Shown piece by piece: positions 8,759 to 64,000 of a stretch of DNA of 64,000 nucleotides. A program made the translations under genes and the position numbers. Location: NCBI RefSeq assembly GCF_001677475.2, contig NZ_CP015229.1; one strand, written 5' to 3'. Under the pieces are notes generated by a model. The model saw only the letters and a list, made by a program, of their open reading frames with translations, had not been told where the DNA came from and did no database searches. Position 1 is the stretch's first letter. Each line of letters starts with the position of its first letter. Origin of the DNA: Escherichia coli. GTDB taxonomy: Bacteria > Pseudomonadota > Gammaproteobacteria > Enterobacterales > Enterobacteriaceae.

Positions 8759-10720
8759 GTGACCGTATCTTCTCATCGACTTGAACTGTTAAGCCCGGCA
8801 CGCGATGCCGCCATTGCCCGCGAAGCTATTTTGCACGGTGCCGATGCTGTTTATATCGGCGGCCCTGGTTTTGGTGCCCGTCATAATGCCAGTAATAGCC
8901 TGAAAGATATTGCCGAGCTGGTGCCGTTTGCCCATCGTTATGGTGCAAAAATTTTCGTCACGCTTAACACCATTCTGCATGATGATGAGCTTGAACCCGC
9001 GCAACGGCTGATTACCGACCTCTACCAGACCGGCGTCGATGCGCTGATTGTTCAGGATATGGGGATTCTGGAACTTGATATTCCGCCGATTGAACTGCAC
9101 GCCAGTACGCAGTGCGACATTCGCACGGTAGAGAAAGCGAAGTTCCTTTCTGATGTTGGCTTCACGCAGATTGTGCTGGCACGAGAGCTGAATCTTGAGC
9201 AGATCCGCGCGATTCACCAGGCCACGGACGCGACCATTGAATTCTTTATTCATGGCGCACTGTGCGTGGCCTATTCGGGTCAGTGCTACATTTCTCATGC
9301 GCAAACAGGGCGTAGCGCCAACCGTGGCGATTGCTCGCAGGCGTGCCGTTTGCCATACACATTGAAAGACGATCAGGGGCGGGTGGTTTCCTATGAAAAA
9401 CATCTGCTGTCGATGAAAGATAACGATCAGACTGCCAACCTCGGCGCGCTGATTGATGCTGGCGTACGCTCCTTCAAGATTGAAGGGCGTTACAAAGATA
9501 TGAGCTACGTGAAGAATATCACCGCCCATTATCGCCAGATGCTGGATGCCATTATTGAAGAACGTAGCGATTTGGCGCGAGCTTCATCCGGTCGTACTGA
9601 GCACTTCTTCGTACCGTCGACGGAAAAAACCTTCCATCGTGGCAGCACCGACTACTTTGTTAACGCGCGTAAAGGCGATATTGGCGCATTCGATTCACCG
9701 AAATTTATCGGCCTGCCGGTGGGTGAAGTATTGAAAGTGGCGAAAGATCATCTTGATGTTGAGGTTACCGAACCGCTGGCTAACGGCGATGGACTGAACG
9801 TAATGATTAAGCGTGAAGTCGTCGGCTTTCGTGCCAACACGGTAGAGAAAACTGGGGAAAATCAGTACCGCGTCTGGCCAAATGAGATGCCAGTGGAGCT
9901 GCACAAAATTCGCCCGCACCATCCGCTTAATCGCAACCTCGACCATAACTGGCAGCAGGCGTTGACCAAAACCTCCAGCGAACGTCGGGTGGCGGTAGAC
10001 ATTGAACTGGGCGGCTGGCAGGAACAACTGATTCTGACTCTGACCAGCGAAGAGGGCGTCAGTATCACTCATACGCTGGACGGGCAGTTCGACGAAGCGA
10101 ATAACGCCGAAAAAGCACTCCTCAATCTGAAAGAGGGATTGTCGAAGCTTGGGCAAACCCTCTATTACGCCCGCGATGTGCAAATTAATTTGCCGGGGGC
10201 GCTGTTTGTACCAAACAGTCTGTTAAACCAGTTCCGCCGTGAAGCTGCCGACATGCTGGATGCTGCACGTCTTGCCAGTTACCAGCGGGGCAGCCGTAAA
10301 CCGGTTGCTGATCCTGCGCCGGTTTATCCGCAAACGCATCTGAGTTTCCTCGCGAACGTATACAACCAGAAAGCGCGTGAATTTTATCATCGCTATGGTG
10401 TGCAGCTGATTGACGCGGCGTATGAGGCACATGAAGAGAAGGGCGAAGTCCCGGTGATGATCACCAAGCATTGTCTGCGCTTTGCCTTTAATCTGTGCCC
10501 GAAACAGGCGAAAGGCAATATCAAAAGCTGGAAGGCGACGCCAATGCAACTGGTTAACGGCGATGAAGTGTTAACGCTGAAATTTGATTGCCGCCCATGC
10601 GAGATGCACGTCATTGGCAAAATCAAAAATCACATACTGAAAATGCCGTTACCGGGAAGCGTAGTGGCATCCGTAAGTCCGGATGAGCTGCTGAAAACAT
10701 TGCCGAAGCGAAAAGGGTAA
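8759..10720 (+). CDS. rlhA: Peptidase U32 family protein RlhA/YdcP (23S rRNA C2501 hydroxylation)
   Basis: 653 aa if initiated at GTG 8759, the recalled YdcP length; the track ORF begins at 8717; U32 family by sequence recall. Confidence 0.85.
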   Translation: MTVSSHRLELLSPARDAAIAREAILHGADAVYIGGPGFGARHNASNSLKDIAELVPFAHRYGAKIFVTLNTILHDDELEPAQRLITDLYQTGVDALIVQDMGILELDIPPIELHASTQCDIRTVEKAKFLSDVGFTQIVLARELNLEQIRAIHQATDATIEFFIHGALCVAYSGQCYISHAQTGRSANRGDCSQACRLPYTLKDDQGRVVSYEKHLLSMKDNDQTANLGALIDAGVRSFKIEGRYKDMSYVKNITAHYRQMLDAIIEERSDLARASSGRTEHFFVPSTEKTFHRGSTDYFVNARKGDIGAFDSPKFIGLPVGEVLKVAKDHLDVEVTEPLANGDGLNVMIKREVVGFRANTVEKTGENQYRVWPNEMPVELHKIRPHHPLNRNLDHNWQQALTKTSSERRVAVDIELGGWQEQLILTLTSEEGVSITHTLDGQFDEANNAEKALLNLKEGLSKLGQTLYYARDVQINLPGALFVPNSLLNQFRREAADMLDAARLASYQRGSRKPVADPAPVYPQTHLSFLANVYNQKAREFYHRYGVQLIDAAYEAHEEKGEVPVMITKHCLRFAFNLCPKQAKGNIKSWKATPMQLVNGDEVLTLKFDCRPCEMHVIGKIKNHILKMPLPGSVVASVSPDELLKTLPKRKG

Positions 10721-36421: not shown

Positions 36422-36494
36422 AAAAAGTTTCCTCTGTTTAGTGAGTGGATTCTGGCGGTGTTGCCGCACCGCCCCCTTTTCTGGAGGTACGATA

Positions 36495-37046
36495 ATGAAT
36501 CGCACATCCCTGATTAAATTAATTCATGTCGCCCGTCGTGATCTACAACTCGACGATGACACTTACCGCGCCTTTCTGGTGCAGTGCACAGGCAAGACCA
36601 GCTGCCGCGAGCTGTCCGTTGCACAACTGGAACGTGTGCTCGATGCCATGAAAGAGTGCGGTTTTAAAAAGCAGAAAAAACATCCCCGCCGTCGCTTTAA
36701 GGGGCATGTCACACCGCGCGAGAAGATTTATAAAATCTGGCAGCAGATGTTTCAGGATGGCTTTATCGCTGATGGCAGCGATGTCGCGCTGGACAAATAC
36801 GTTGCACGCCTGACGGCCAGACGTAATGGCGGTCAGGGGGTTTCCACGCTGGCCTGGTGTCACGGGGAATCGTTGCAGGTTGTGCTCGAAACGCTCAAGC
36901 AGTGGCACATGCGCTGCATCCGGGAAGCCTTTGCCCGACATGGTGTGCCGTTACCTGCAAGCCCATCCGGGCGGGAACTACGCGGATATGATGCACTGAC
37001 CAGTGCATATGCCCGCGCACGAAACAGCGGGAGAATTGCTGTATGA
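36495..37046 (+). CDS. gemA: GemA-family protein (Mu gp16-like)
   Basis: 183 aa from ATG 36495 with GGAGGT Shine-Dalgarno; position upstream of mor. Confidence 0.8.
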   Translation: MNRTSLIKLIHVARRDLQLDDDTYRAFLVQCTGKTSCRELSVAQLERVLDAMKECGFKKQKKHPRRRFKGHVTPREKIYKIWQQMFQDGFIADGSDVALDKYVARLTARRNGGQGVSTLAWCHGESLQVVLETLKQWHMRCIREAFARHGVPLPASPSGRELRGYDALTSAYARARNSGRIAV

Positions 37047-37492
37047 AACAGATGAAAGAGCAGGATTTATTCGAAGACCTTCGGGACGACAGCGTTCTGG
37101 AATATCTTCATGATTACCAGGAAAACACCGCTTATCCGGCGTTACTTTCTGAACTGAACGCACTGCTGCGTAAAGAGCTGGCCCGGATTGGCGCAGACCC
37201 TGCTCATTCCCTTGAGCTGGTTGTGGCGATTTGTCGCCATATCGGCGGGATGCAGGTTTATGTTCCGAGGGGGAATATTCTGGAGAATCTTGTCCGGGAT
37301 ATGCGTATCTGGCGTGATTTTAACGGTCATAATATTCCTGAACTGGTTCAGCGTTACGGGGTGACGTATAAAACCGTCTACAAGGCCATCAAACGGATGC
37401 GACGTCTGGAGCGCAATAAATACCAGCCGGATTTGTTTTACCCCTCCCCGAACCTGCCTCACCCCGTTCGTCGTCCACCACGACGCCCTTAA
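37043..37492 (+). CDS. mor: Mor transcription activator (Mor/C family)
   Basis: 149 aa; sequence closely matches recalled Mu Mor (DLFEDLRDDSVLEYL, VVAICRHIGGMQVYVPRG, YKAIKRMRRL). Confidence 0.88.
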   Translation: MKQMKEQDLFEDLRDDSVLEYLHDYQENTAYPALLSELNALLRKELARIGADPAHSLELVVAICRHIGGMQVYVPRGNILENLVRDMRIWRDFNGHNIPELVQRYGVTYKTVYKAIKRMRRLERNKYQPDLFYPSPNLPHPVRRPPRRP

Positions 37493-37500
37493 TCAATGAA

Positions 37501-37522
37501 GCCGGTAAATCCGGCTTTTTTT
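37501..37522 (+). terminator. Rho-independent terminator after mor
   Basis: GCCGG-TAAAT-CCGGC hairpin followed by a run of seven T. Confidence 0.6.
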
Positions 37523-37577
37523 ATGCCTCCGGCACCATGAAGCAGACCACGTTTAAATCTGCTTCACAGGTGCTTTT

Positions 37578-38174
37578 ATGGAAAATCAAAAATTCTCCCC
37601 GGCCTTTGAACATGCGCTGAATTTCATTCTGCGTCCCGATATCGAAGGCGTCTATGCCAATGACCCCACTGACCGTGGCGGTGAAACCAAATACGGCATT
37701 TCTGACCGCCGCGACGGTGTGACTGACGGCAAAACCGATGTCAACGGCGACGGCAAACCGGATACCCGCATCAGGGATTTAACCCGCGAACAGGTTGCTC
37801 AGATTTACTGGCGCGATTACTGGCTGCCTGCCGGATGTGACCAGTGGCCTGATGGCGTGGCGATGTTTGTGTTCGATGCGGCGGTTCAGCATGGCGTTAA
37901 AAAAGCTATCAGGATTTTGCAGGAAGCCGCGGATGTGGATGCTGACGGCATCATCGGCCCCCGTACCCGTAAGGCCGTGAGCCTGTCCACCCCGGACTGG
38001 CTGCTGGCCCGCTGCATTGTCCGTCGTTCCCGCTTTTATGCCGACATCATCAAGTCCAAACCCGCCCAGGGCAAATACCTGAACGGCTGGTTTAACCGCA
38101 TGGAAAAGCTGACCGACGCCTGTCTGGAAATCATCGATACCCCTCCAGGCATCATGTCCGCCACGCGGGGGTGA
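37578..38174 (+). CDS. Endolysin, glycoside hydrolase family 108 with C-terminal peptidoglycan-binding domain
   Basis: 198 aa; motif EGVYANDPTDRGGETKYGIS matches the GH108 family signature EGGY.NDP.DPGGETN.GI; DGIIGPRT in the C-terminal domain. Confidence 0.8.
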   Translation: MENQKFSPAFEHALNFILRPDIEGVYANDPTDRGGETKYGISDRRDGVTDGKTDVNGDGKPDTRIRDLTREQVAQIYWRDYWLPAGCDQWPDGVAMFVFDAAVQHGVKKAIRILQEAADVDADGIIGPRTRKAVSLSTPDWLLARCIVRRSRFYADIIKSKPAQGKYLNGWFNRMEKLTDACLEIIDTPPGIMSATRG

Positions 38175-38175
38175 T

Positions 38176-38427
38176 ATGGGCAAAGGCTGGGATGCCTCTC
38201 TGAAAGCCGGGCGGCGCGACCGCCTGCGTCAGGAGGTTCTGCACCGCATGGCCGGAGGTCCGCCCCCGAAACCGCTGGACTATACCGGCCATGACGGCAC
38301 ACACGCCAGCTACTACATGCGTGGCTGGAACTCCGTGGATACACGGGACATTTTCTGGCAGTGCCAGAAGTACAGGGAAAAATTCAATGTGGAAAAAGGT
38401 TATGAACAAAATTTTAAAACTGTGTGA
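38176..38427 (+). CDS. Hypothetical protein in lysis region
   Basis: 83 aa; starts 2 nt after the endolysin stop; overlaps the next ORF. Confidence 0.4.
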   Translation: MGKGWDASLKAGRRDRLRQEVLHRMAGGPPPKPLDYTGHDGTHASYYMRGWNSVDTRDIFWQCQKYREKFNVEKGYEQNFKTV

Positions 38428-38812
38428 CTGGCTGATTTGTTCCCGACTGATGAGAACCCCATGGCCGCTGGCCGGACTGACGCTCTGTATGTTCATCATC
38501 AGCATGTTATGTGGCTGGCGATCGTTCGTGTTGATGTTGTTGTCCTTTGCCGGGGTGGTGTTGTTTTCATACAGCGCAAGCCTCGGGAATGTGCCATTTC
38601 GCCTGCTGCCTGAGGTCCGTTACCGGGCTTTTGGTCGCCACATCATCGTGTGGTCATGGGTGGTCTGGGCGCTGGGATATTTCTGCTGCGTCTTCAGCAC
38701 GCTGATGATGATGTCACCGGCACACCCGGTGTTCTGGCTGTGTGGTGGCGGTTGCGGCGCTCTGCTCTGTCTTCAGCGTTATCTGTATGGAGGTTTCCCG
38801 TGGATCCGTTAA
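38402..38812 (+). CDS. Polytopic small membrane protein (holin-like or exclusion-like)
   Basis: 136 aa from ATG 38402; three to four hydrophobic helices; lysis-region context. Confidence 0.5.
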   Translation: MNKILKLCDWLICSRLMRTPWPLAGLTLCMFIISMLCGWRSFVLMLLSFAGVVLFSYSASLGNVPFRLLPEVRYRAFGRHIIVWSWVVWALGYFCCVFSTLMMMSPAHPVFWLCGGGCGALLCLQRYLYGGFPWIR

Positions 38813-39408
38813 CCCTTTCAGGCATCGCCTCCGTTCTGCTGAAAGCCGGGCCGGGGCTGATTCGTTCCGTCGGGCGCTGGTTTGGTGGCGGTACATCTGC
38901 CGCCGCTGACTCGGTGGCCGGTATGGTGGAAAGCGTCCGGGAAAGCCTGCCGGTGGCTGAACAGCAGCGCGTTCTGGAACAGAAGATGGCGATGTTACCA
39001 CCGGAACAACAGATACAACTGGAAACCCTGAAAATTCAGCTGCAACAACTGGAGGTGGAGCGGCAGAAGCTGGTGCTGGCTGACCAGCAGGCCGCACACC
39101 ACGAACAGCAGGAAACCATCCGCAATGGTGACAACGCCACGGACAGCTATGTGCGCCAGACGCGCCCGCTGCTGGCCCGCCTTTCCTGTTACAGCGGTCT
39201 GGCCTATGTGCTGTTGCTCTCCTGCGGCCAGATTGCCGGAGCCGTTGCCGGTGCCAGAGGTATCACGCTGCATATGCCAACACCGGACTGGGATATCACG
39301 CTGATGTTGCTTACCCCTGCGCTGGGCTATCTCGGCGTGCGAACCCTTGACGGCTTTGCCCGTTACAGCAAATCAAGCCGTCACAAAATGTCTGCGGGGC
39401 TGAAATGA
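38800..39408 (+). CDS. Lysis-associated membrane protein with coiled-coil N-terminus and C-terminal transmembrane segments
   Basis: About 202 aa if initiated at GTG 38800 (overlaps preceding stop); Q/L-rich heptad region then two hydrophobic helices; start uncertain (internal ATGs at 38920 and 38984). Confidence 0.45.
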   Translation: MDPLTLSGIASVLLKAGPGLIRSVGRWFGGGTSAAADSVAGMVESVRESLPVAEQQRVLEQKMAMLPPEQQIQLETLKIQLQQLEVERQKLVLADQQAAHHEQQETIRNGDNATDSYVRQTRPLLARLSCYSGLAYVLLLSCGQIAGAVAGARGITLHMPTPDWDITLMLLTPALGYLGVRTLDGFARYSKSSRHKMSAGLK

Positions 39409-39632
39409 CCGATGAAATCGACCGCATCAGTGAAGTGGTTCTGAACGAGCGTCAGTGCGTCGTTAAAGCCTGGCAGACGCGGACAAAAGAAGCGCCCCAC
39501 AGTCGGGGCTTCTGCAATGACTGCGGGAACGTTATTCCGGCACAGCGCCTTGCGGCGCTGCCGGATGTGGTGACCTGTATTGACTGCCAGCAGATGCGTG
39601 AGCGCAGGAGGAAGACATGTCCTGGGAAGTGA
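39405..39632 (+). CDS. TraR/DksA-family C4 zinc-finger protein
   Basis: 75 aa; CNDCGNVIP...CIDCQ four-cysteine motif characteristic of the DksA/TraR zinc finger. Confidence 0.7.
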   Translation: MTDEIDRISEVVLNERQCVVKAWQTRTKEAPHSRGFCNDCGNVIPAQRLAALPDVVTCIDCQQMRERRRKTCPGK

Positions 39633-39922
39633 TCCGGGCCAACTGGCCCATTTTATGGGCGCTGTTGATGACAGCGATAAATTTGCTTCAGCTGATTCTG
39701 GCAAAGACTTACGTCAAACGCGAAGAGTTTGATTCGCTGCGTTCCCGTGTGTCGGTGATGGAAGGTCTGGTGAATCAGCTCCCCGACCGCAATGAATTTC
39801 ACCGCCTGCAACTGGATATCAGCAACCTGCGGGGCGAAATCCGGGAACTGGGGCCATCCATACGCCAGGTTTCCCGCATCAGTGATTTGTTATTAGAGAA
39901 CGAGTTAAAGGTAAAAAATTAA
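39617..39922 (+). CDS. Membrane-anchored coiled-coil protein (i-spanin/Rz-like)
   Basis: 101 aa; N-terminal transmembrane helix (ILWALLMTAINLLQLILA) followed by coiled-coil-like sequence. Confidence 0.5.
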   Translation: MSWEVIRANWPILWALLMTAINLLQLILAKTYVKREEFDSLRSRVSVMEGLVNQLPDRNEFHRLQLDISNLRGEIRELGPSIRQVSRISDLLLENELKVKN

Positions 39923-40215
39923 TGGCGATGAAAGAGATCCTCACTGAAGACCGTCGTCTGGTGTTGCTGCGTTCCCTGCTGGACTGTGGCGACAGCGCGA
40001 ATGAATCCGTGTTGCAGACCTGCCTTCAGGCTTATGGTCATAAGGTATCCCGTGATGTGGTGCGCACCCAGCTTGCATGGCTTCGCGAGCAGGGGTTGGT
40101 TCGTCTGTCTGATGTGGGCGGCTGTTACGTGGCTGAAATCACCGGCAGCGGCGAGGATGTGGCAAACGGCCTGTCCAGCGTTCCGGGCGTTAAAAAACCC
40201 CGTGCGAGGGGCTGA
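39922..40215 (+). CDS. Hypothetical phage protein
   Basis: 97 aa; translationally coupled to the preceding ORF. Confidence 0.5.
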   Translation: MAMKEILTEDRRLVLLRSLLDCGDSANESVLQTCLQAYGHKVSRDVVRTQLAWLREQGLVRLSDVGGCYVAEITGSGEDVANGLSSVPGVKKPRARG

Positions 40216-40217
40216 GC

Positions 40218-40517
40218 ATGGCCCGAAAACTGAAGCCGTTAAGTCGCGGAGAACGGGCCGTCGTGCGGCAACTGGCGTACTGCCTTGTGCTGGCAGATAT
40301 TGAGCAAAACGCCATTGTCCGTGCATACGAACAACAGACCGGAAAGCCCTGGAGCCCGGATGCACCGGACAGCCCCATGAAACGCTTTCTGCGGTCATCA
40401 CCGGCATGTGCGCGGCTGTGGAAGCTGCTGGGTAAGGATATCCGGTCCGTTCGCGAAGAAATATACGCCGGTCTGAAAACACCGGGAACTGAAGACGGGG
40501 GCCGTCGTGAACCGTAA
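40218..40517 (+). CDS. Hypothetical phage protein
   Basis: 99 aa. Confidence 0.5.
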   Translation: MARKLKPLSRGERAVVRQLAYCLVLADIEQNAIVRAYEQQTGKPWSPDAPDSPMKRFLRSSPACARLWKLLGKDIRSVREEIYAGLKTPGTEDGGRREP

Positions 40518-40654
40518 AAAGAATCCGATAAGTAAAGCGTCCCGTGATGAACTCCGCCGTCTGGCGCACAACCTGACATGGCGGGAAATCCAGAGCGGCG
40601 CGCTGAAATCTGCATACGAAAGTTTACAGCGTAGTGAGCAACAGGAGGGCAAAC

Positions 40655-41236
40655 ATGGAAAATGAACAACGCCCCACCCGTGGCCGTCTTTCCAAAGTGG
40701 ATTTACTCCCGGACAGCATCCGGGAGCAGTTGCATCAGATGCTGCGGGAAAAGCGGCACACGCAGGAAGAAATCCGCGAAGCCATCAACGCCCTGATTGA
40801 CGAACACAACCTGCCGGAAGAGATGCAGTTAAGCCGGACGGGTTTAAACCGTTATGCCAGCCGCATGGAAAAAGTCGGGGCCAAAATCCGCGCCTCCCGC
40901 GAAATGGCCGAAGTCTGGGCGGCAAAGCTGGGTTCCGCGCCAACATCAGACGTCGGCAGGCTGCTGATGGAGTTTGTAAAAACGCTGGCCTTTGAAACGT
41001 CCATGTCGATGGCAGAAGACGACAAACCTGTAGCACCAAAGGCGCTGGGGCAACTGGCGCTGGTTGCCCAGCGTCTGGAAGCGGCAGCCATGACCAGCCA
41101 TAAACGCGAGAAAGCGATCCGCGATGCGTTTGCACAGGAGATGGCTGAGAAAACCGAAGAGCTGGTCAGAACGGGTGGTCTGTCAGGCGGTGCGGCTGAC
41201 ACCATCAAACGAGACATTCTGGGGATTAGCGCATGA
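40655..41236 (+). CDS. Mu gp27-like protein (putative terminase small subunit)
   Basis: 193 aa from ATG 40655 with AGGAGGG Shine-Dalgarno; directly upstream of the large terminase and overlapping its start. Confidence 0.6.
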   Translation: MENEQRPTRGRLSKVDLLPDSIREQLHQMLREKRHTQEEIREAINALIDEHNLPEEMQLSRTGLNRYASRMEKVGAKIRASREMAEVWAAKLGSAPTSDVGRLLMEFVKTLAFETSMSMAEDDKPVAPKALGQLALVAQRLEAAAMTSHKREKAIRDAFAQEMAEKTEELVRTGGLSGGAADTIKRDILGISA

Positions 41237-42768
41237 CACAGATGAACACGTTCAGTGAATCCGATGTTCTGCTGCCGTATCAGAAACGCTGGGTGGCGGA
41301 TGATTCAAAACTGAAAATCGCCGAGAAATCACGCCGTACCGGGTTAACCTGGGCGGAAGCGGCAGATGCAGCACTGACCGCATCACTGAAGAAGGAAAAC
41401 GGCGGGCGCGATCACTTTTATATCGGTTCGAATAAGGAGATGGCCCGCGAATTTATCGACGCCGTAGCGATGTGGGCGAAAGCGTTTAATGCGGCAGCGG
41501 AAGAAATCCGCGAGGAAGTGATCACCGACGAAGACATGGACATTCTGACGTTCGTCGTGTACTTCGCCAGCGGTTTTAAGGTCAAGGCGCTGTCCAGCAA
41601 TCCGGGCAACATTCGCGGGATGCAGGGGAATGTCACCATCGACGAAGCGGCGTTTCATGAAAAACTGGATGAGGTACTCAAGGCGGTCACACCACTGACC
41701 ACGTGGGGCGGTAAGGTTCGCCTTATCTCCACCCATGACGGCGTGGACAACCCGTTTAACCAGCTGATTCAGGAGAGCCGCGCAGGCAAAAAAGATTACC
41801 GTATTCACACCATCACGCTGGATGACGCCTGCAGTGACGGGCTGTACCGGCGTATCTGTCAGGTACGCGGCATGGAGTGGTCACCGGAGGCCGAGGCGGA
41901 ATGGAAAGAAGGCCTGCTGCGAAATACCGCCACCCGCGAAGACGCCCTGGAGGAATATTACTGCGTCCCGAAAAACGGCGGCGGCACGTATATCCCCCGC
42001 TCAATGCGTGAACGTGCAGCCCGTGGCACCGGAAAAGTGTTGCGCTTTACCGGCACACCGGAATTTAACGCACTGACGGAAAGCCAGCGCCGGGCAGATA
42101 TCCGGGAATGGCTGGAAACGGTGGTGCGCCCTGAACTGGAAAAACTCCCACAGAACCTGCGCCACTGTCTGGGGGAAGACTTTGCGCGTTCGGGTGACCT
42201 GACTGTGCTGGCCCCGGTGACGGTGAACGACGACACCACCCGCGAGGTGCCGTTCCTGGTTGAGCTTGCCAATGTGCCGTTTAAACAGCAGGAGCAGGTA
42301 CTGTTCTGGCTTTGCGATCGTCTGCCCCGTCGTGACGGCATCAAAATGGATGCGCGGGGGAATGGTCAGTATCTGGCAGAACAGGCGGCGGAGCGGTACG
42401 GCGACGAGGTGGAACAGGTGATGCTGTCCGTGGCGTTTTACCGTGAAAACATGCCCCGTTTCCGTGCGGCGTTTGAAGATGATGAGCTGATCCTTCCGAA
42501 GCATGAAGACGTGATCAATGACCTCGGGGCCATTCAGTTACTGCGTGGCGTTCCCGGCATTGATGATTCACGAACCAGAGGCAGCGACGGTCACAAACGT
42601 CACGGCGACGCCGCTGTGGCCATTTTCCTGGGCTTCCTTGCCAGTAAAGATGACTGCCACCGTTACGAACTGCACCGTCTGAACCGCCCGGCGAAACCGG
42701 AAGAACGCAACGCGCGCCGCCAGCTGAAGCTGACGCGCGGCCTGAAAAATGAGGGAGGTTTACTGTGA
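41233..42768 (+). CDS. Terminase large subunit (Mu gp28 family)
   Basis: 511 aa; position and sequence character. Confidence 0.88.
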   Translation: MTQMNTFSESDVLLPYQKRWVADDSKLKIAEKSRRTGLTWAEAADAALTASLKKENGGRDHFYIGSNKEMAREFIDAVAMWAKAFNAAAEEIREEVITDEDMDILTFVVYFASGFKVKALSSNPGNIRGMQGNVTIDEAAFHEKLDEVLKAVTPLTTWGGKVRLISTHDGVDNPFNQLIQESRAGKKDYRIHTITLDDACSDGLYRRICQVRGMEWSPEAEAEWKEGLLRNTATREDALEEYYCVPKNGGGTYIPRSMRERAARGTGKVLRFTGTPEFNALTESQRRADIREWLETVVRPELEKLPQNLRHCLGEDFARSGDLTVLAPVTVNDDTTREVPFLVELANVPFKQQEQVLFWLCDRLPRRDGIKMDARGNGQYLAEQAAERYGDEVEQVMLSVAFYRENMPRFRAAFEDDELILPKHEDVINDLGAIQLLRGVPGIDDSRTRGSDGHKRHGDAAVAIFLGFLASKDDCHRYELHRLNRPAKPEERNARRQLKLTRGLKNEGGLL

Positions 42769-44336
42769 ACCAGAAACAACAGGCCGGGGCCGCACGCCGT
42801 CTGCTGAACCCGGCAACCGGTGAGGAAGACACGCTGAAAAAAGAGGCGCTCAACGAAGCACAGGCCCGTCCGCGTCAGGCTGGCGTGCGTCCGGCCTCGC
42901 CGGGCATCAGCATCGCCTCCGGGCTGAATCCCGGCAGGCTGGCAGGCATTCTGCGCAATGCCGCCAACGGTATCACGCGTGATTTTTTTATCCTTGCCGA
43001 AGAGATGGAAGAACGCGATTTGCATTACGCCTCGGTGCTGCGCACCCGCAAGCTGACGGTGGCGGGTATTGAACCGGTGGTGGTGGCTGCCAGTGATGAC
43101 GATGCCGACGTACAGCTGGCGGATGCCATACGTGCGCTGATGGAAGCCCCGCAAATCCCCGAGCTGATGTTTGATTTGCTCGACGGGCTGGGAAAAGGCG
43201 TGGCGGTCTGTGAAATTTTGTGGAACACCCGCAACAACCACTGGGTGCCCCGTGATTATGAGTGGGTTGATCCCCGTTTTCTGAAAGCCGAAAAGCCCAC
43301 TCTGCGCCGGTTCCGCCTGCTGACTGACGATGAACCGGTGGATGGCGTACCGCTGACACCGGGAAAATTCATTGTTCACCAGCCGCGTCTGAAATCCGGT
43401 CTGCCGCTGCGTAACGGTCTGGCCCGTCTGGTGGCTGTGATGTATATGCTGAAATCCTTTACCGTGCGTGACTGGTGGGCATTTGCGGAAAAATTCGGCA
43501 TTCCGGTTACGGTGGGGAAATACGGTCCCAACGCCACGGAGGAGCAAATCCGCGTGCTGATTGATGCGATTGCCTCCATTGCCTCAGATGCCGGGTGTGC
43601 CATTCCGCAGTCCATGCAACTGGAGATGCAGGAAACCGCCAGCCGGAATAACGGCGGCGCGCTGTTCCGTGAAATGGCTGAATGGTGCGATGCGCAAATC
43701 AGTAAAGCCGTACTGGGGCAGACCATGACCACAGATAATGGCAGTTCGCGTTCACAGGCGGACGTGCACAATCAGGTGCGCATGGACATTGTGCGCTGGG
43801 ACGCGCGACAGCTGGCTAACACGCTGAATGAATATCTGGTGCGTCCCTACATCGAGGCCAACTACGGGCCACAGGCGCACTATCCCCGTGTTGTTCTGCG
43901 TATCAGTGAAGCCGAAGATCTGAAGGCGCTGACTGATGCTCTGGTGCCACTGATTGACCGGGGGATGCGGGTTCAGGAATCGGAGCTGCGGGATCGGTTC
44001 GGCCTGGCGGAACCGGACGAAGGGGCTGATGTTCTGCATCCGGTGTCTGCCGGAATGTCAGGTGATATGGCGATGAACCACGAGCGCGTCGCCCTGAACC
44101 GGGAACACCCCGACGAACTGGCACAGATGGTGGATGATGCCCTGCGTGACTGGCAGAAAACCGGCGAGGCGTTCACAAACCCGGTGCTGACACTGGCGCA
44201 GGAATGCGACAGTTTTGATGACTTTCTGAAACGCCTGCCTGAGCTTCAGGAAACGCTGAACGCGGACGACTTTGCCCTGCAACTGGCGGAGGTGTGCTTT
44301 AAGGCCCGTGCGCTGGGAGACACTGGTCATGCGTGA
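42765..44336 (+). CDS. Portal protein (Mu gp29 family)
   Basis: 523 aa; follows terminase with ATGA overlap. Confidence 0.88.
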   Translation: MNQKQQAGAARRLLNPATGEEDTLKKEALNEAQARPRQAGVRPASPGISIASGLNPGRLAGILRNAANGITRDFFILAEEMEERDLHYASVLRTRKLTVAGIEPVVVAASDDDADVQLADAIRALMEAPQIPELMFDLLDGLGKGVAVCEILWNTRNNHWVPRDYEWVDPRFLKAEKPTLRRFRLLTDDEPVDGVPLTPGKFIVHQPRLKSGLPLRNGLARLVAVMYMLKSFTVRDWWAFAEKFGIPVTVGKYGPNATEEQIRVLIDAIASIASDAGCAIPQSMQLEMQETASRNNGGALFREMAEWCDAQISKAVLGQTMTTDNGSSRSQADVHNQVRMDIVRWDARQLANTLNEYLVRPYIEANYGPQAHYPRVVLRISEAEDLKALTDALVPLIDRGMRVQESELRDRFGLAEPDEGADVLHPVSAGMSGDMAMNHERVALNREHPDELAQMVDDALRDWQKTGEAFTNPVLTLAQECDSFDDFLKRLPELQETLNADDFALQLAEVCFKARALGDTGHA

Positions 44337-45093
44337 AACCCTCATCCCGAAAGAGGCGCTGGCGTGGCTGAAGGCGAAGAAGCTGCGCCCCGGTTTTGAT
44401 TACCGGGATGTGTGGCGGGAAGAACACCGGAACAGCTTCACCGTGGCAAAAATGCTGCAACTGGATTTGTTGTCGGATGTGAAATCCCTTGTGGAAGACG
44501 CCCTGCAAAGCGGGCAGACGTTCAGCGAGTTCCGGGAGATGCTGCAACCGCTGCTGATAAAACGCGGATGGTGGGGCGTACAGGAGATGGATGATCCGCT
44601 GACGGGCGAAAGGCGCACCGTGCAACTGGGCAGCGACCGCCGCCTCCGCACGATTTTTGACACCAACATGCGCACCGCCCGCGCGGCGGGCCAGTGGGAA
44701 CGCATTCAGCGGACAAAGCGGGCCATGCCGTATCTGATTTATGAGCTGGGGCCATCCCGCGAGCACCGGGCGGAGCATGTGAAATGGGCGCGTCTGTGTC
44801 TGCCTGTAGACCACCCGTTCTGGCAGACGCATTTCGCCCCTAACGGCTGGGGCTGCAAATGCACCATCCGTCAGGTCAGCCGTGGTGAGTATGCGCAACT
44901 GGCGGCACAGGGCACCATTCACACCGAAGCGCCGGAAATCAGGACTGTCCGCTGGGTGAACAAACGTACGGGCGAAGAGGAAGAGGTGCCGGAAGGGATT
45001 GATCCGGGCTGGAACTACAATCCCGGTATAAACCGTGAGCAGGAGCTGGCGCGCCAGCTGGCGACAAAACAGGCCCGTTTTGACAGTGAGTAA
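44329..45093 (+). CDS. Head morphogenesis protein (Mu F family)
   Basis: 254 aa from ATG 44329 overlapping the portal stop. Confidence 0.85.
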   Translation: MRETLIPKEALAWLKAKKLRPGFDYRDVWREEHRNSFTVAKMLQLDLLSDVKSLVEDALQSGQTFSEFREMLQPLLIKRGWWGVQEMDDPLTGERRTVQLGSDRRLRTIFDTNMRTARAAGQWERIQRTKRAMPYLIYELGPSREHRAEHVKWARLCLPVDHPFWQTHFAPNGWGCKCTIRQVSRGEYAQLAAQGTIHTEAPEIRTVRWVNKRTGEEEEVPEGIDPGWNYNPGINREQELARQLATKQARFDSE

Positions 45094-45235
45094 CCCTCCC
45101 GCCGTAAATCCCCCTGAAACGCATCAGAAACGCGTTTTTTATTCTGATGGCGTGAATGTGCATTCTGACGTTTTTGAAGATGCTGTGGCGTTTTTGAAGG
45201 GGTTTTGAAGGGGGTATTTCCCCGTTTTCAGTGAA

Positions 45236-45257
45236 GCCGGTAAATCCGGCTTTTTTT
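45236..45257 (+). terminator. Rho-independent terminator after F; same sequence as the one after mor
   Basis: GCCGG-TAAAT-CCGGC plus seven T; 26 bp identical to 37497-37522. Confidence 0.6.
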
Positions 45258-45306
45258 CTGCCTTCCGCATACTGACCGTCGGTAACCCCAGACGACGGAG
45301 ACTGAC

Positions 45307-46263
45307 ATGCAACCGGAACTGCTGGCGCTGTGTTTTTCCCTGCCAGAACCCATCCCTGAGCTGACACCTGCTCAACTGCCGGAATGGCTCGAACTTGTCC
45401 CTGCGGGTGAGTTCACCGGGCGCGATGGCCGGACGTGGATTAACCGCAATCCGCATGAGGTGGTTGCCCGTTCGTCCGGCATCAAAATTCCGGTGGATAT
45501 TGAACACGCCACCGAAATTAAAGGCCCGCGTGGTGAAGATGCTCCGGCGTATGGCTGGGTGGAAGAACTGCGGGTGACGGACAGCAGCACCATTGAAGGG
45601 CGTGTTGTCTGGAGCGAGTCCGCCCGCTGGATGCTGAGCGAGCGCCGCTACCGCTATTACAGCCCGGCGTTTTTCTTTGACGCGGAAGGCGTAGTGACGC
45701 GCCTGTCCAGCGTCGGGCTGACCAACAAACCTAACCTGGATTTTCCTGCACTGAATACGGAGAAAAACCTGATGACAGTACCTGTGCAAATCACCGGCCT
45801 GCTTGGGCTGGCTGAATCTGCCACGGTGGACGATACCGTGGCCGCCATTAAACAACTTCAGGAGAACGAACAGGTGGCGCTGAACCGCGCACAGACACCT
45901 GATCTGACGAAGTTTGTGCCGGTGGAAACCCACAATCTGGCCCTGAACCGTGCCGAAACCGCAGAACAACGCCTTCAGCAACTTGAAGAGAAGGAAGCAG
46001 AAGCGCTTGTGGATGCGGCCATCGAAGCCGGAAAAGTGGCCCCGGCAAACCGTGACATGTTCCTTGCCACCTGCCGCACGGAAGAAGGCCGCAAACAGTT
46101 TGCGGAGTACACCAGAGGCGCACAGCCGCTGGTGAACAACGACAAGCCCAGCCAGGGCAAGGATAAACCCGCGCAGACACTGACCGACACCGAACTGGCG
46201 ATGTGCCGCAGCATGGGTATTACCGGGGAAGAGTTCCTCGCCGCTAAACCGAAACAGGAGTAA
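45307..46263 (+). CDS. Head protease/scaffold protein (Mu I family)
   Basis: 318 aa; immediately upstream of the major capsid gene. Confidence 0.8.
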   Translation: MQPELLALCFSLPEPIPELTPAQLPEWLELVPAGEFTGRDGRTWINRNPHEVVARSSGIKIPVDIEHATEIKGPRGEDAPAYGWVEELRVTDSSTIEGRVVWSESARWMLSERRYRYYSPAFFFDAEGVVTRLSSVGLTNKPNLDFPALNTEKNLMTVPVQITGLLGLAESATVDDTVAAIKQLQENEQVALNRAQTPDLTKFVPVETHNLALNRAETAEQRLQQLEEKEAEALVDAAIEAGKVAPANRDMFLATCRTEEGRKQFAEYTRGAQPLVNNDKPSQGKDKPAQTLTDTELAMCRSMGITGEEFLAAKPKQE

Positions 46264-54788: not shown

Positions 54789-55858
54789 TGGGATCCGTGA
54801 TTCTTACCGTTGACGGTAAACTGTGGGAAGGCTGGACGGAAATGTCCGTCAGCCGTTCCCTGAAGGCGATTGCCGGTGAGTTTGATCTCAGTGTGACAAC
54901 ACGCTGGTCAGCGGCGGCACCGCGCGTGATTCGTGAGGGGCAACCCTGTACGGTCAGGCTGGGTGCGGATACCGTGCTGACGGGGTATATCGATGATTTT
55001 ATTCCCAGCTATGACGCGGACAATGTGGAAATTCGTGTCATGGGGCGCGACAAAACCGGCGACCTGGTGGACTGCTCTGTGGTGCATTCGTCCGGGAAAT
55101 GGAAAGGCGTGCGGCTTGAACAGGTGGCGGCGGATGTCTGCCGCCCGTTCGGAATAACCGTCATCACGGAAACCCCGACCGGGGAGGCGTTTGCGTCCGT
55201 TGTTCTGGAACAGGGTGAAACGGGTTTTGAACTGCTCGACCGGCTGGCAAAACAGCGCGGTGTTCTGCTGACGTCTGACGGAGCGGGTAACCTGATTATC
55301 ACCCGCGCTTCTTCCGTTCGCGCGGGCGTGTCACTGGTGCTGGGAAAAAATATCCTCGCCGCCCGTGGGCGCTTCAGCTGGCGGGAGCGTAACAGTCAGT
55401 ACATCATCAAGGGCACCACCAGTGCCGGTGGCAAACTGTGGGACAGCCAGCCTGCCCCGATGGTGGGCGGTCGCCAGTACATCACCGAAGACCCGGAAAT
55501 TAACCGTTACCGCCCGCGCATTCTGGTCAATGAAGACAGTCTGACCGTGGGCGGTGCCAGCATTCGCGGGGAATGGTACAAAGCCCGGATGCTGGGAGAG
55601 GCCCGCACGACGGAAATCACGGTGGCAGGCTGGCGCGAACAGGGCGACAGCGGTCCGCTGTGGCAGACCAACCGCCTTGTCGATATCGACGACAGCATTC
55701 AGAACCTGAAAACCACCTGGCTGATATCCGGGGTGACCTGGACGGATGGTGCACAGGGGCGGATGACGGTTCTGGCGCTGGTTCCGCCTGAATCACTGGA
55801 TATGCCGGAAATGAAAGCGAAGACGAAGAAAACAAAGGCGGTGGCCACATGGGATTAA
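54788..55858 (+). CDS. Baseplate hub protein (Mu P/gp44 family)
   Basis: 356 aa. Confidence 0.8.
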   Translation: MGSVILTVDGKLWEGWTEMSVSRSLKAIAGEFDLSVTTRWSAAAPRVIREGQPCTVRLGADTVLTGYIDDFIPSYDADNVEIRVMGRDKTGDLVDCSVVHSSGKWKGVRLEQVAADVCRPFGITVITETPTGEAFASVVLEQGETGFELLDRLAKQRGVLLTSDGAGNLIITRASSVRAGVSLVLGKNILAARGRFSWRERNSQYIIKGTTSAGGKLWDSQPAPMVGGRQYITEDPEINRYRPRILVNEDSLTVGGASIRGEWYKARMLGEARTTEITVAGWREQGDSGPLWQTNRLVDIDDSIQNLKTTWLISGVTWTDGAQGRMTVLALVPPESLDMPEMKAKTKKTKAVATWD

Positions 55859-56385
55859 ACGCCATTGCCCGCCGTCTGCGACTGATGGTTGACCGTGCCA
55901 TTGTCCGCATGGTGTCTGACAGTCTGGAGCGGCAGAACCTGCAAATCCAGACGCTGGCAGATGCCACCGACGACGACGTGGAACGCTTCCAGAACTACGG
56001 TTTTACATCCGTGCCGCCGGAAGGTTCTGAAGCCATAGTGCTGGCCGTTAGCGGGCGGCGTGACGGGCTGGTTGCCATCGCGGTGGAGGACAAGCGATGT
56101 CGCCCGAAAGGGCTGTCCCCCGGCGACGTCCGGCTGTATCACCAGGACGGCAAATCACATATCACGTTAAGGAAAGGCGGAATTATTGAAATCACAGGGG
56201 AACAATTAAACGTTTCAGGGAAAACGGTAAATCTCACCGCCGACGAATTACTGGCTATAAATGCAGGAAATATGAAATTCGTCGGTCCCTGTGAGTTTAC
56301 TGAAGATGTCAGAATCAACGGCAAATCTTTCAGCGAACACATTCATAAGGACGGCGACAATGAGAATACATCACCGCCCGTATGA
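55849..56385 (+). CDS. Baseplate assembly/spike protein (Mu gp45, gpV-like)
   Basis: 178 aa. Confidence 0.75.
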   Translation: MGLNAIARRLRLMVDRAIVRMVSDSLERQNLQIQTLADATDDDVERFQNYGFTSVPPEGSEAIVLAVSGRRDGLVAIAVEDKRCRPKGLSPGDVRLYHQDGKSHITLRKGGIIEITGEQLNVSGKTVNLTADELLAINAGNMKFVGPCEFTEDVRINGKSFSEHIHKDGDNENTSPPV

Positions 56386-63999: not shown

Positions 64000-64000
64000 A

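Follow-up and report, generated by a model that had tools for sequence, protein, structure and literature searches.

Two copies of a 26-bp hairpin in a Mu-like prophage of Escherichia coli are the probable cores of Mor-dependent promoters

Introduction

The closest described counterpart of the element studied here is the middle promoter Pm of phage Mu, at which a dimer of the activator Mor binds a 16-bp element at positions -51 to -36 (centre -43.5), composed of 5-bp inverted repeats separated by a G/C-rich 6-nt spacer (PMC4390567; PMC4287176). The bases just downstream of this box are reported to be critical for activation by Mor and by C (PMC2582627), and the C-type box has the consensus TTAT-N5-6-ATAA (PMC12867686). 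In phage T4, early read-through transcripts of gene e sequester the ribosome-binding site, whereas transcripts from the late promoter do not (PMC3014915). Here we analyse a Mu-like prophage region within a 64,000-nt stretch of Escherichia coli DNA (the window; all coordinates refer to its + strand), in which the 26-mer TGAAGCCGGTAAATCCGGCTTTTTTT occurs in exactly two copies, at 37497-37522 between mor and the endolysin gene (lys) and at 45232-45257 between genes F and I. An initial annotation had described these copies as identical terminators at two operon boundaries, suggestive of duplication or of a mobile cassette and potentially able to support recombination or deletion between the sites. 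We find that the two copies probably form the core (about -49 to -24) of Mor-dependent, Pm-type promoters, and are not a mobile cassette or a recombination scar. The element belongs to a known kind, Pm-type Mor promoters in which activator box and terminator overlap, and is present here twice.

Results

The repeated 26-mer and its alignment with Mu Pm

The two copies of the 26-mer lie in direct orientation, 7.7 kb apart, and do not differ from each other; identity and gene context are both as the initial annotation gave them. Likeness between the copies extends to 49 nt at 86% identity (37486-37534 compared with 45221-45269), and no further match with up to three mismatches is present in the 64-kb window. 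A chance repeat is ruled out, since the number of matches expected from 100 dinucleotide-preserving shuffles is 0. The predicted fold of each copy is a hairpin with an 8-bp stem (5 G-C pairs) and a loop of 5 nt, at -12.6 kcal/mol (z about -4.3), and seven T come next; this is the anatomy of a Rho-independent terminator, a GC-rich stem-loop directly followed by a U-run.

To place the Mor box we applied the published base numbering of Mu Pm (-57 G, -56 T, -55 to -53 AAA; PMC4390567; PMC4287176) to the Mu sequence (cAGTAAAGCCGGTTAATCCGGCTTTTTTTACGTCC / ctGTAAAcAGTAAAGCCGGTTAATCCGGCTTTTTTTACGTCCTCAATATCCTGTGATGAAtaacc). This positions the box at AGTAA-AGCCGG-TTAAT, with +1 at position 725 of the Mu locus (L074) and TATCCT as the -10 hexamer, and is consistent with the GenBank promoter feature at 9163-9233 (about -61 to +10). 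A box centred on the hairpin loop was rejected; it would have its centre at about -37.5, 6 bp off the Mu value of -43.5, and the Howe-lab base numbering shifts the box upstream. The hairpin loop corresponds to the right half-site of the Mor box, the left arm to the box spacer, and the right arm and T-run to -35 to -24, so that the 26-mer runs from the end of the left half-site through spacer and right half-site to the bases directly downstream of the box and the T-run. The GenBank record of Mu also carries a terminator predicted by TransTermHP at 9179-9200, inside Pm. The early terminator t9.2 of Mu coincides with the Pm hairpin, with which these GenBank coordinates agree.

The predicted promoter elements of the window are as follows.

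37495..37510, + strand: predicted Mor box 1, AATGA-AGCCGG-TAAAT (equivalent to -51 to -36), placed by base-for-base alignment with the Mu Pm box; matrix score 31.9, the top match of the window
37497..37522, + strand: 26-mer copy 1 (about -49 to -24), with stem 37498-37505 / 37511-37518, loop TAAAT and T-run; probable early-operon terminator
37533..37538, + strand: predicted -10 hexamer CACCAT of the lys promoter, starting 25 bp past the loop centre at 37508; +1 predicted near 37546
45230..45245, + strand: predicted Mor box 2, AGTGA-AGCCGG-TAAAT; matrix score 31.7; kept in relatives without the right arm and T-run, for example GTGAAGCCGGTTAATCCACCTGAG in L004
45232..45257, + strand: 26-mer copy 2, hairpin and T-run; possible terminator of the lys-F operon in the lineage of the window
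45268..45273, + strand: predicted -10 hexamer CATACT of the I promoter, starting 25 bp past the loop centre at 45243; +1 predicted near 45281

The window copies share with Mu Pm the near-identical AAGCCGGT(A/T)AATCCGGC followed by seven T, a box of 5 + 6 + 5 bp, a distance of 25 bp from the loop centre to the start of a -10-like hexamer, and an A/T-rich segment directly upstream; as at Pm, there is no -35, and no -35-containing sigma-70 promoter was called at either copy. The spacer is identical to that of Mu. Differences are confined to the left half-site, which is AGTAA at Pm but AATGA or AGTGA in the two copies, and to one base of the loop, which is also the right half-site (TTAAT in Mu, TAAAT in the window). 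One relative, L004, equals Mu across GCCGGTTAATCCGGCTTTTTTT, and its dyad is identical to that of Mu Pm. A position weight matrix built from all the sites and scanned over the window ranked the two copies first (31.9 and 31.7), with the next best site at 19.8 and a mean of 0.6 hits above 12 in shuffled windows. Also shared with Pm are a position directly after mor, for copy 1, and a cognate activator, the window Mor being 63% identical to Mu Mor (127 aa, E = 9e-63, including the helix-turn-helix region).

The two copies can also be compared with the Mu late promoters, Plys and PI, which lie at the corresponding places of the Mu genome, Plys upstream of the endolysin gene and PI upstream of gene I, and have their activator box equally far from the -10. 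The core promoter and leader of I are homologous to those of PI: CATACT aligns with CAAACT (window TCCGCATACTGAC, Mu CCCGCAAACTGAC), which we infer to be the -10 of PI, and each is then followed by a hairpin. What differs is the activator box: that of Mu is C-type and lacks a hairpin and T-run, and the one found in its place in the window is Mor-type.

Conservation among relatives

Relatives of the prophage were taken from about 48 of 5,426 complete E. coli genomes at 94-97% DNA identity, with a second tier at about 72%, and from a further 69 loci in IMG/VR (70-98% portal identity); among GenBank phages, a megablast search with the 10-kb region yielded no more than three weak partial matches. 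The lys and I genes were located in every locus and the upstream DNA was extracted, giving 39 unique variants for lys (63 loci) and 33 for I (70 loci).

The two sites are conserved in different ways. All 39 unique lys variants retain at least five contiguous stem pairs and a T-rich tail. Relatives also have a CAnnnT-type hexamer at the same distance, and the element adjoins lys even where an extra open reading frame (ORF) parts mor from lys. At the I site the stem and T-run are both kept in only 13 of 33 unique variants, the other 20 having lost one or both. L004 provides an example, its I site (GTGAAGCCGGTTAATCCACCTGAGTCCCC) being without the right arm and T-run; some other variants hold the dyad by paired changes (GAAACCGG/CCGGTTT, GAAAGCGG/CCGCTTTC). 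What every I-site variant does keep is GAA-xxCGG-TWAAT-CC and, 25-26 bp past the loop centre, CAyACT or GACACT; the DNA between the loop and this -10 hexamer is unrelated among relatives, with the spacing fixed. Where the hairpin is gone but left arm, loop and downstream hexamer persist at fixed spacing, the pattern is that of a protein-binding site in an activator-dependent promoter, not of a terminator. The 5-nt loop is always TWAAT (TAAAT or TTAAT) at both sites, an invariance that would be unexpected for a terminator loop and favours the promoter reading, as does the usual agreement of the loop variant between the lys and I sites of one phage.

The view of the initial annotation that the copies are terminators at two operon boundaries holds in part. 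Terminator anatomy is present at both, and the universal hairpin and U-run at lys are best explained by an added terminator role, stopping early transcription before the lysis genes; the lys copy is thus probably also the terminator of the early operon. At the I site, right arm and T-run are often missing from relatives that have the box and -10, so that conservation there is not for termination, which is evidently optional at this site. The 26-bp identity reflects stacked constraints (box, adjoining bases, complement of the hairpin and U-run), not mobility.

The extra ORF found between mor and the lys promoter in many relatives encodes about 160-170 aa with no Pfam match (L001 2451-2948, L003 2451-2930, L004 3321-3830). 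The window and L002 are without it, and in both mor is longer.

Distribution and alternative explanations

With a 34-nt probe, 50 of the 5,426 complete E. coli genomes gave matches of at least 95%, which were chromosomal in every case; near-exact matches (at least 99%) were found in 45 genomes, the same number as full-length prophage matches. Ubiquity in the species, which the initial annotation had named as grounds for refutation, is therefore not observed, and the motif is confined to the prophage carriers. A further 831 genomes have one marginal match of 88%, which is the host map terminator AAGCCGGCGAATGCCGGCTTTTTT. This resembles the window copies in its GC-rich 8-bp stem, short loop, U-run of at least seven and similar stem sequence, but has neither the TWAAT loop nor the Mor box, and host terminators do not have a conserved -10 at a fixed distance downstream. 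In the map-glnD spacer of E. coli IHE3034 (L120 601-633) the map terminator reads AATGAAGCCGGCGAATGCCGGCTTTTTTAATGC, a generic look-alike with no Mor box.

The initial annotation had also proposed a search across Mu-like genomes. The exact pattern AGCCGGTWAATCCGGCTTTTT was found in 108 stretches among 2.9 million viral contigs, and 83 occurrences from 80 viral loci were examined. The site directly upstream of lys accounts for 62 of them, the F-I interval for 17 and Mu Pm for 1; another 2 are truncated at contig ends, and the last has no recognisable context. Nearly all examined occurrences are thus at the two syntenic sites or at Mu Pm.

Three other explanations of the repeat were weighed. An unlikely one, although it survives best, is that the copies are two plain intrinsic terminators with no promoter role, identical through recent duplication or gene conversion. 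It agrees with the canonical terminator anatomy of both copies and with the sharing of one loop variant by the lys and I sites in 38 of 45 unique phage pairs; moreover, the I copy equals the lys copy through the right arm and T-run, which are dispensable in other lineages, and this equality recurs in some further lineages, for example L025 (34 identical nt). It does not account for the near-identity to the Mor box that experiments have mapped at Mu Pm, for the conservation of both the loop sequence and the hexamer 25 bp downstream, or for the persistence of the I-site left arm and loop in variants in which no hairpin can form and the T-run is missing. In 22 close relatives the 26-mer has variable positions at 1/26 (lys) and 0/26 (I), and the flanks vary; the site-specific flanks are stably different (AATGA and AGTGA; ATGCCTCC and CTGCCTTCC), which speaks against the module as a whole still being homogenised.

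RecA-mediated deletion between the copies, yielding defective prophages, would have a perfect identity of 26 bp to act on, in direct orientation and 7.7 kb apart, but 26 bp is at the lower limit for homologous recombination. A chimeric query representing the deletion junction had no place with at least 80% coverage in any of the 5,426 complete E. coli genomes, and the 45 carriers match one half only, making this role of the repeat very improbable. Least credible of all is a small mobile terminator cassette resembling a miniature inverted-repeat transposable element or a repetitive extragenic palindrome, for which the sole support is an identical short palindrome at two intergenic sites, and against which stand the two copies per prophage, the two syntenic Mu-like positions of 79 of the 83 occurrences examined, the restriction of matches of at least 95% to those 50 genomes, the unrelated map terminator (88% identity) as the only host look-alike, and the absence of target duplications or of terminal repeats reaching beyond the hairpin.

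Activator and gene context

The genes around the two copies are arranged in the order GemA, Mor, copy 1, GH108 endolysin, large terminase, Mu-type portal, F, copy 2, protease I and the major head protein, T. From the mor stop codon to copy 1 the distance is 5 nt, and from copy 1 to the endolysin gene it is 56 nt. Copy 2 is contained in the 214-nt spacer that separates the Mu-F-like gene, at 44272-45093, from the gene for the Mu-I-like protease, at 45307-46263.

36441-37046: GemA gene
37043..37492, + strand: mor, the sole Mor/C-family activator gene of the window (Pfam Mor PF08765, E = 3.6e-30)
37578..38174, + strand: gene for the GH108 endolysin, which opens the lysis/packaging operon (Pfam PF05838, PF09374)
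45307..46263, + strand: Mu-I-like protease/scaffold gene, first gene of the head operon (Pfam PF10123, E = 4.3e-44)

The window Mor is only 32% identical to Mu C, and tblastn with Mor and C detected no second Mor/C-family gene in the 64-kb window, in L001 or in L004. The two promoters are therefore not of the C-dependent late type: the box is Mor-type, no C paralogue was found, and the activator is a Mor. In Mu a single Pm drives the middle operon (E18...C), whereas the window has two such elements, predicted to drive the endolysin/packaging and head operons directly. With Mor present and no C gene found, the cascade probably has two steps (early genes, then Mor, then late genes) compared with the three of Mu, and this simplification would explain why the Pm-type element occurs twice. 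The gene content thus suggests a family that probably lacks a middle tier and in which Mor activates the lys and I operons directly.

Two clamp-binding motifs are known from the Mor/C family (PMC12867686), and the window Mor has both, as QDLF (N-terminal) and QPDLF (C-terminal). C-terminal QPDLF is present in Mu C, and Mu Mor has QPSLL at that position. The window Mor also has a proline- and arginine-rich C-terminal tail of 17 residues, which is absent from the 136-aa Mor of relatives. Inside the lys-packaging operon, a gene at 39405-39632, kept in relatives, encodes a TraR/DksA-type zinc-finger protein that could act as a modulator of RNA polymerase in late transcription.

Leader structures of lys and I

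Downstream of each box, RNA reading through from upstream is predicted to fold over the start of the following gene.

37531..37574, + strand: lys leader structure, in which GGCACC (37531-37536) pairs with the Shine-Dalgarno region GGUGCU (37569-37574); inner stem 37538-37546 / 37558-37566
45276..45298, + strand: I leader hairpin CCGTCG / CGACGG, with the predicted +1 inside its 5' arm and the Shine-Dalgarno GGAG overlapped by its 3' arm

The lys leader fold has a free energy of -21.2 kcal/mol (z = -5.9), and its GGCACC arm overlaps the lys -10, hence lies upstream of any start from the lys promoter. In every lineage the lys leader fold is strong in read-through RNA, with a mean of -22.4 kcal/mol, and weak from the predicted +1, with a mean of -4.6; the corresponding means for I leaders are -14.8 and -2.1 kcal/mol. 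In Mu, the Pm, PI and Plys leaders give -14.9, -15.1 and -17.7 in read-through RNA compared with -4.6, -2.1 and -1.5 from +1, only PI being significant against shuffles; the Mu pairings are at L074 715-751, 9523-9553 and 1928-1988.

The arms of the lys leader differ by lineage yet are complementary (CGGCAC/GUGCCG, AUGCCUG/CAGGCAU, UCGGCA/UGCCGA). RNAalifold on 20 lys leaders found no structure and no column-wise covariation, because the pairing registers differ between lineages, and per-sequence folding with a swap and shuffle control was used in its place. The pre-start segment of lys with its own ribosome-binding region gave -16.7 kcal/mol, compared with -8.0 +/- 2.6 for shuffles and -12.0 with those of other lineages. 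The same swap control on I leaders showed no lineage specificity (-12.3 own, -11.7 swapped), since the stem there is conserved, not covarying.

Read-through transcripts are accordingly predicted by these folding models to hide the ribosome-binding sites of lys and I. The arrangement resembles that of T4 gene e (PMC3014915) in that the 5' arm sequestering the Shine-Dalgarno lies upstream of the late start and the protected gene is an endolysin; with the arm in this position, only transcripts from the late promoter would be translatable. It differs in being a prediction, in having activator-dependent promoters in place of a late sigma factor, and in having a terminator ahead of the structure.

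A candidate third box and other features

The next best matrix match of the window is a weak candidate for a third Mor box.

56216..56235, + strand: weak candidate Mor box CAGGGAAAACGGTAAATCTC, inside the gene for a Mu gp45 homologue (ORF 55849-56385); matrix score 19.8

This segment encodes the conserved peptide GKTVN, so that its conservation is confounded by coding; in the relatives sampled, valine is encoded only by GTA or GTT and asparagine only by AAT. At 26 bp past the candidate box centre there is a -10-like patch rich in A/T (TATAAA here, TATTAT in relatives), which is not conserved as sequence. The Mu PP promoter is also intragenic, but in another gene.

The F-I spacer upstream of copy 2 (45094-45229) contains T-tract repeats of the GTTTTTGAAG type in a phase of about 10-20 bp, with starts at 45171, 45191, 45203 and 45225. 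Its counterpart by alignment is the Mu G-I spacer that holds the central strong gyrase site (Mu TAAAACGCGCCACGGGATTTTTAAACC, L004 TTAAACGCGCCACAGCGTTTTTAAACG), and the gyrase cut site of Mu is annotated just upstream of PI. To judge from this alignment, the spacer is probably the homologue of the strong gyrase site in this prophage. A 46-nt piece of it (45171-45216) also matches other E. coli genomes, for example SE11. The spacer also has a second inverted repeat, GCATCAGAA...TTCTGATGGC enclosing ACGCGTTTTTT, at 45121-45149, about 30 nt past the F stop codon and without a clear terminator tail.

An Rfam search returned only a sub-threshold match to sroD at 37473-37523, overlapping copy 1 (22.7 bits compared with a gathering score of 50, E = 0.79), which is most likely a chance likeness between terminator hairpins.

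Discussion

The two promoters are predicted to work as follows. A Mor dimer would bind double-stranded DNA at the 16-bp box A(A/G)TGA-AGCCGG-TAAAT, which takes the place of a -35, and would recruit sigma-70 RNA polymerase to a weak -10 that begins 25 bp past the loop centre. Transcription would then start near 37546 for the lysis/packaging operon and near 45281 for the head, and probably tail, operon. In RNA arriving from upstream, the spacer AGCCGG, the right half-site, the complement CCGGC and the T-run would instead fold as an intrinsic terminator, and at the mor/lys junction early-operon transcription would probably be stopped ahead of the lysis genes.

Several observations weigh against this account. 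Mor binding, the start sites and termination are placed in this phage by homology. The -10 hexamers are weak, CACCAT agreeing with the consensus at 3/6 positions and CATACT at 4/6, and with TAAAT the half-site symmetry is 3/5, compared with 4/5 in Mu. In the lineage of the window the I and lys copies have an identical right arm and T-run, which is not explained by Mor binding alone; their retention may be ancestral, selected for termination, or due to gene conversion. A distal C-like gene may possibly lie past position 64,000, as the window may end before the right end of the prophage.

A broader scheme is put forward tentatively, as one that we hold to be possible and no more likely than that. 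The Mor/C promoters of Mu-like phages, probably including Mu Pm, Plys and PI, would form a double lock, in which the activator box doubles as a terminator and an anti-Shine-Dalgarno arm is placed between the box and +1, overlapping the -10; a single Mor carrying the C-like QPDLF would run a two-tier cascade in the role of C. If this is true, read-through RNA would be translationally silent, and endolysin and head proteins would be made only from activator-initiated transcripts. The hypothesis can be tested in phage Mu, as a block to translation of read-through transcripts at the late promoters like that of T4 gene e.

For annotation, the analysis locates the two main predicted late promoters, the gene for their activator and a probable terminator of the early operon in a family of Mu-like prophages present in about 1% of complete E. 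coli genomes. It also offers a caution for automated annotation that labels such sites as terminators only; the Mu GenBank record gives Pm both labels. One short sequence would have two roles in this family, binding a protein as DNA and terminating transcription as RNA, and the presence of the Pm-type element at both late operons, with no C gene found, suggests that the regulatory cascade has been rewired so that Mor acts on the late genes directly.

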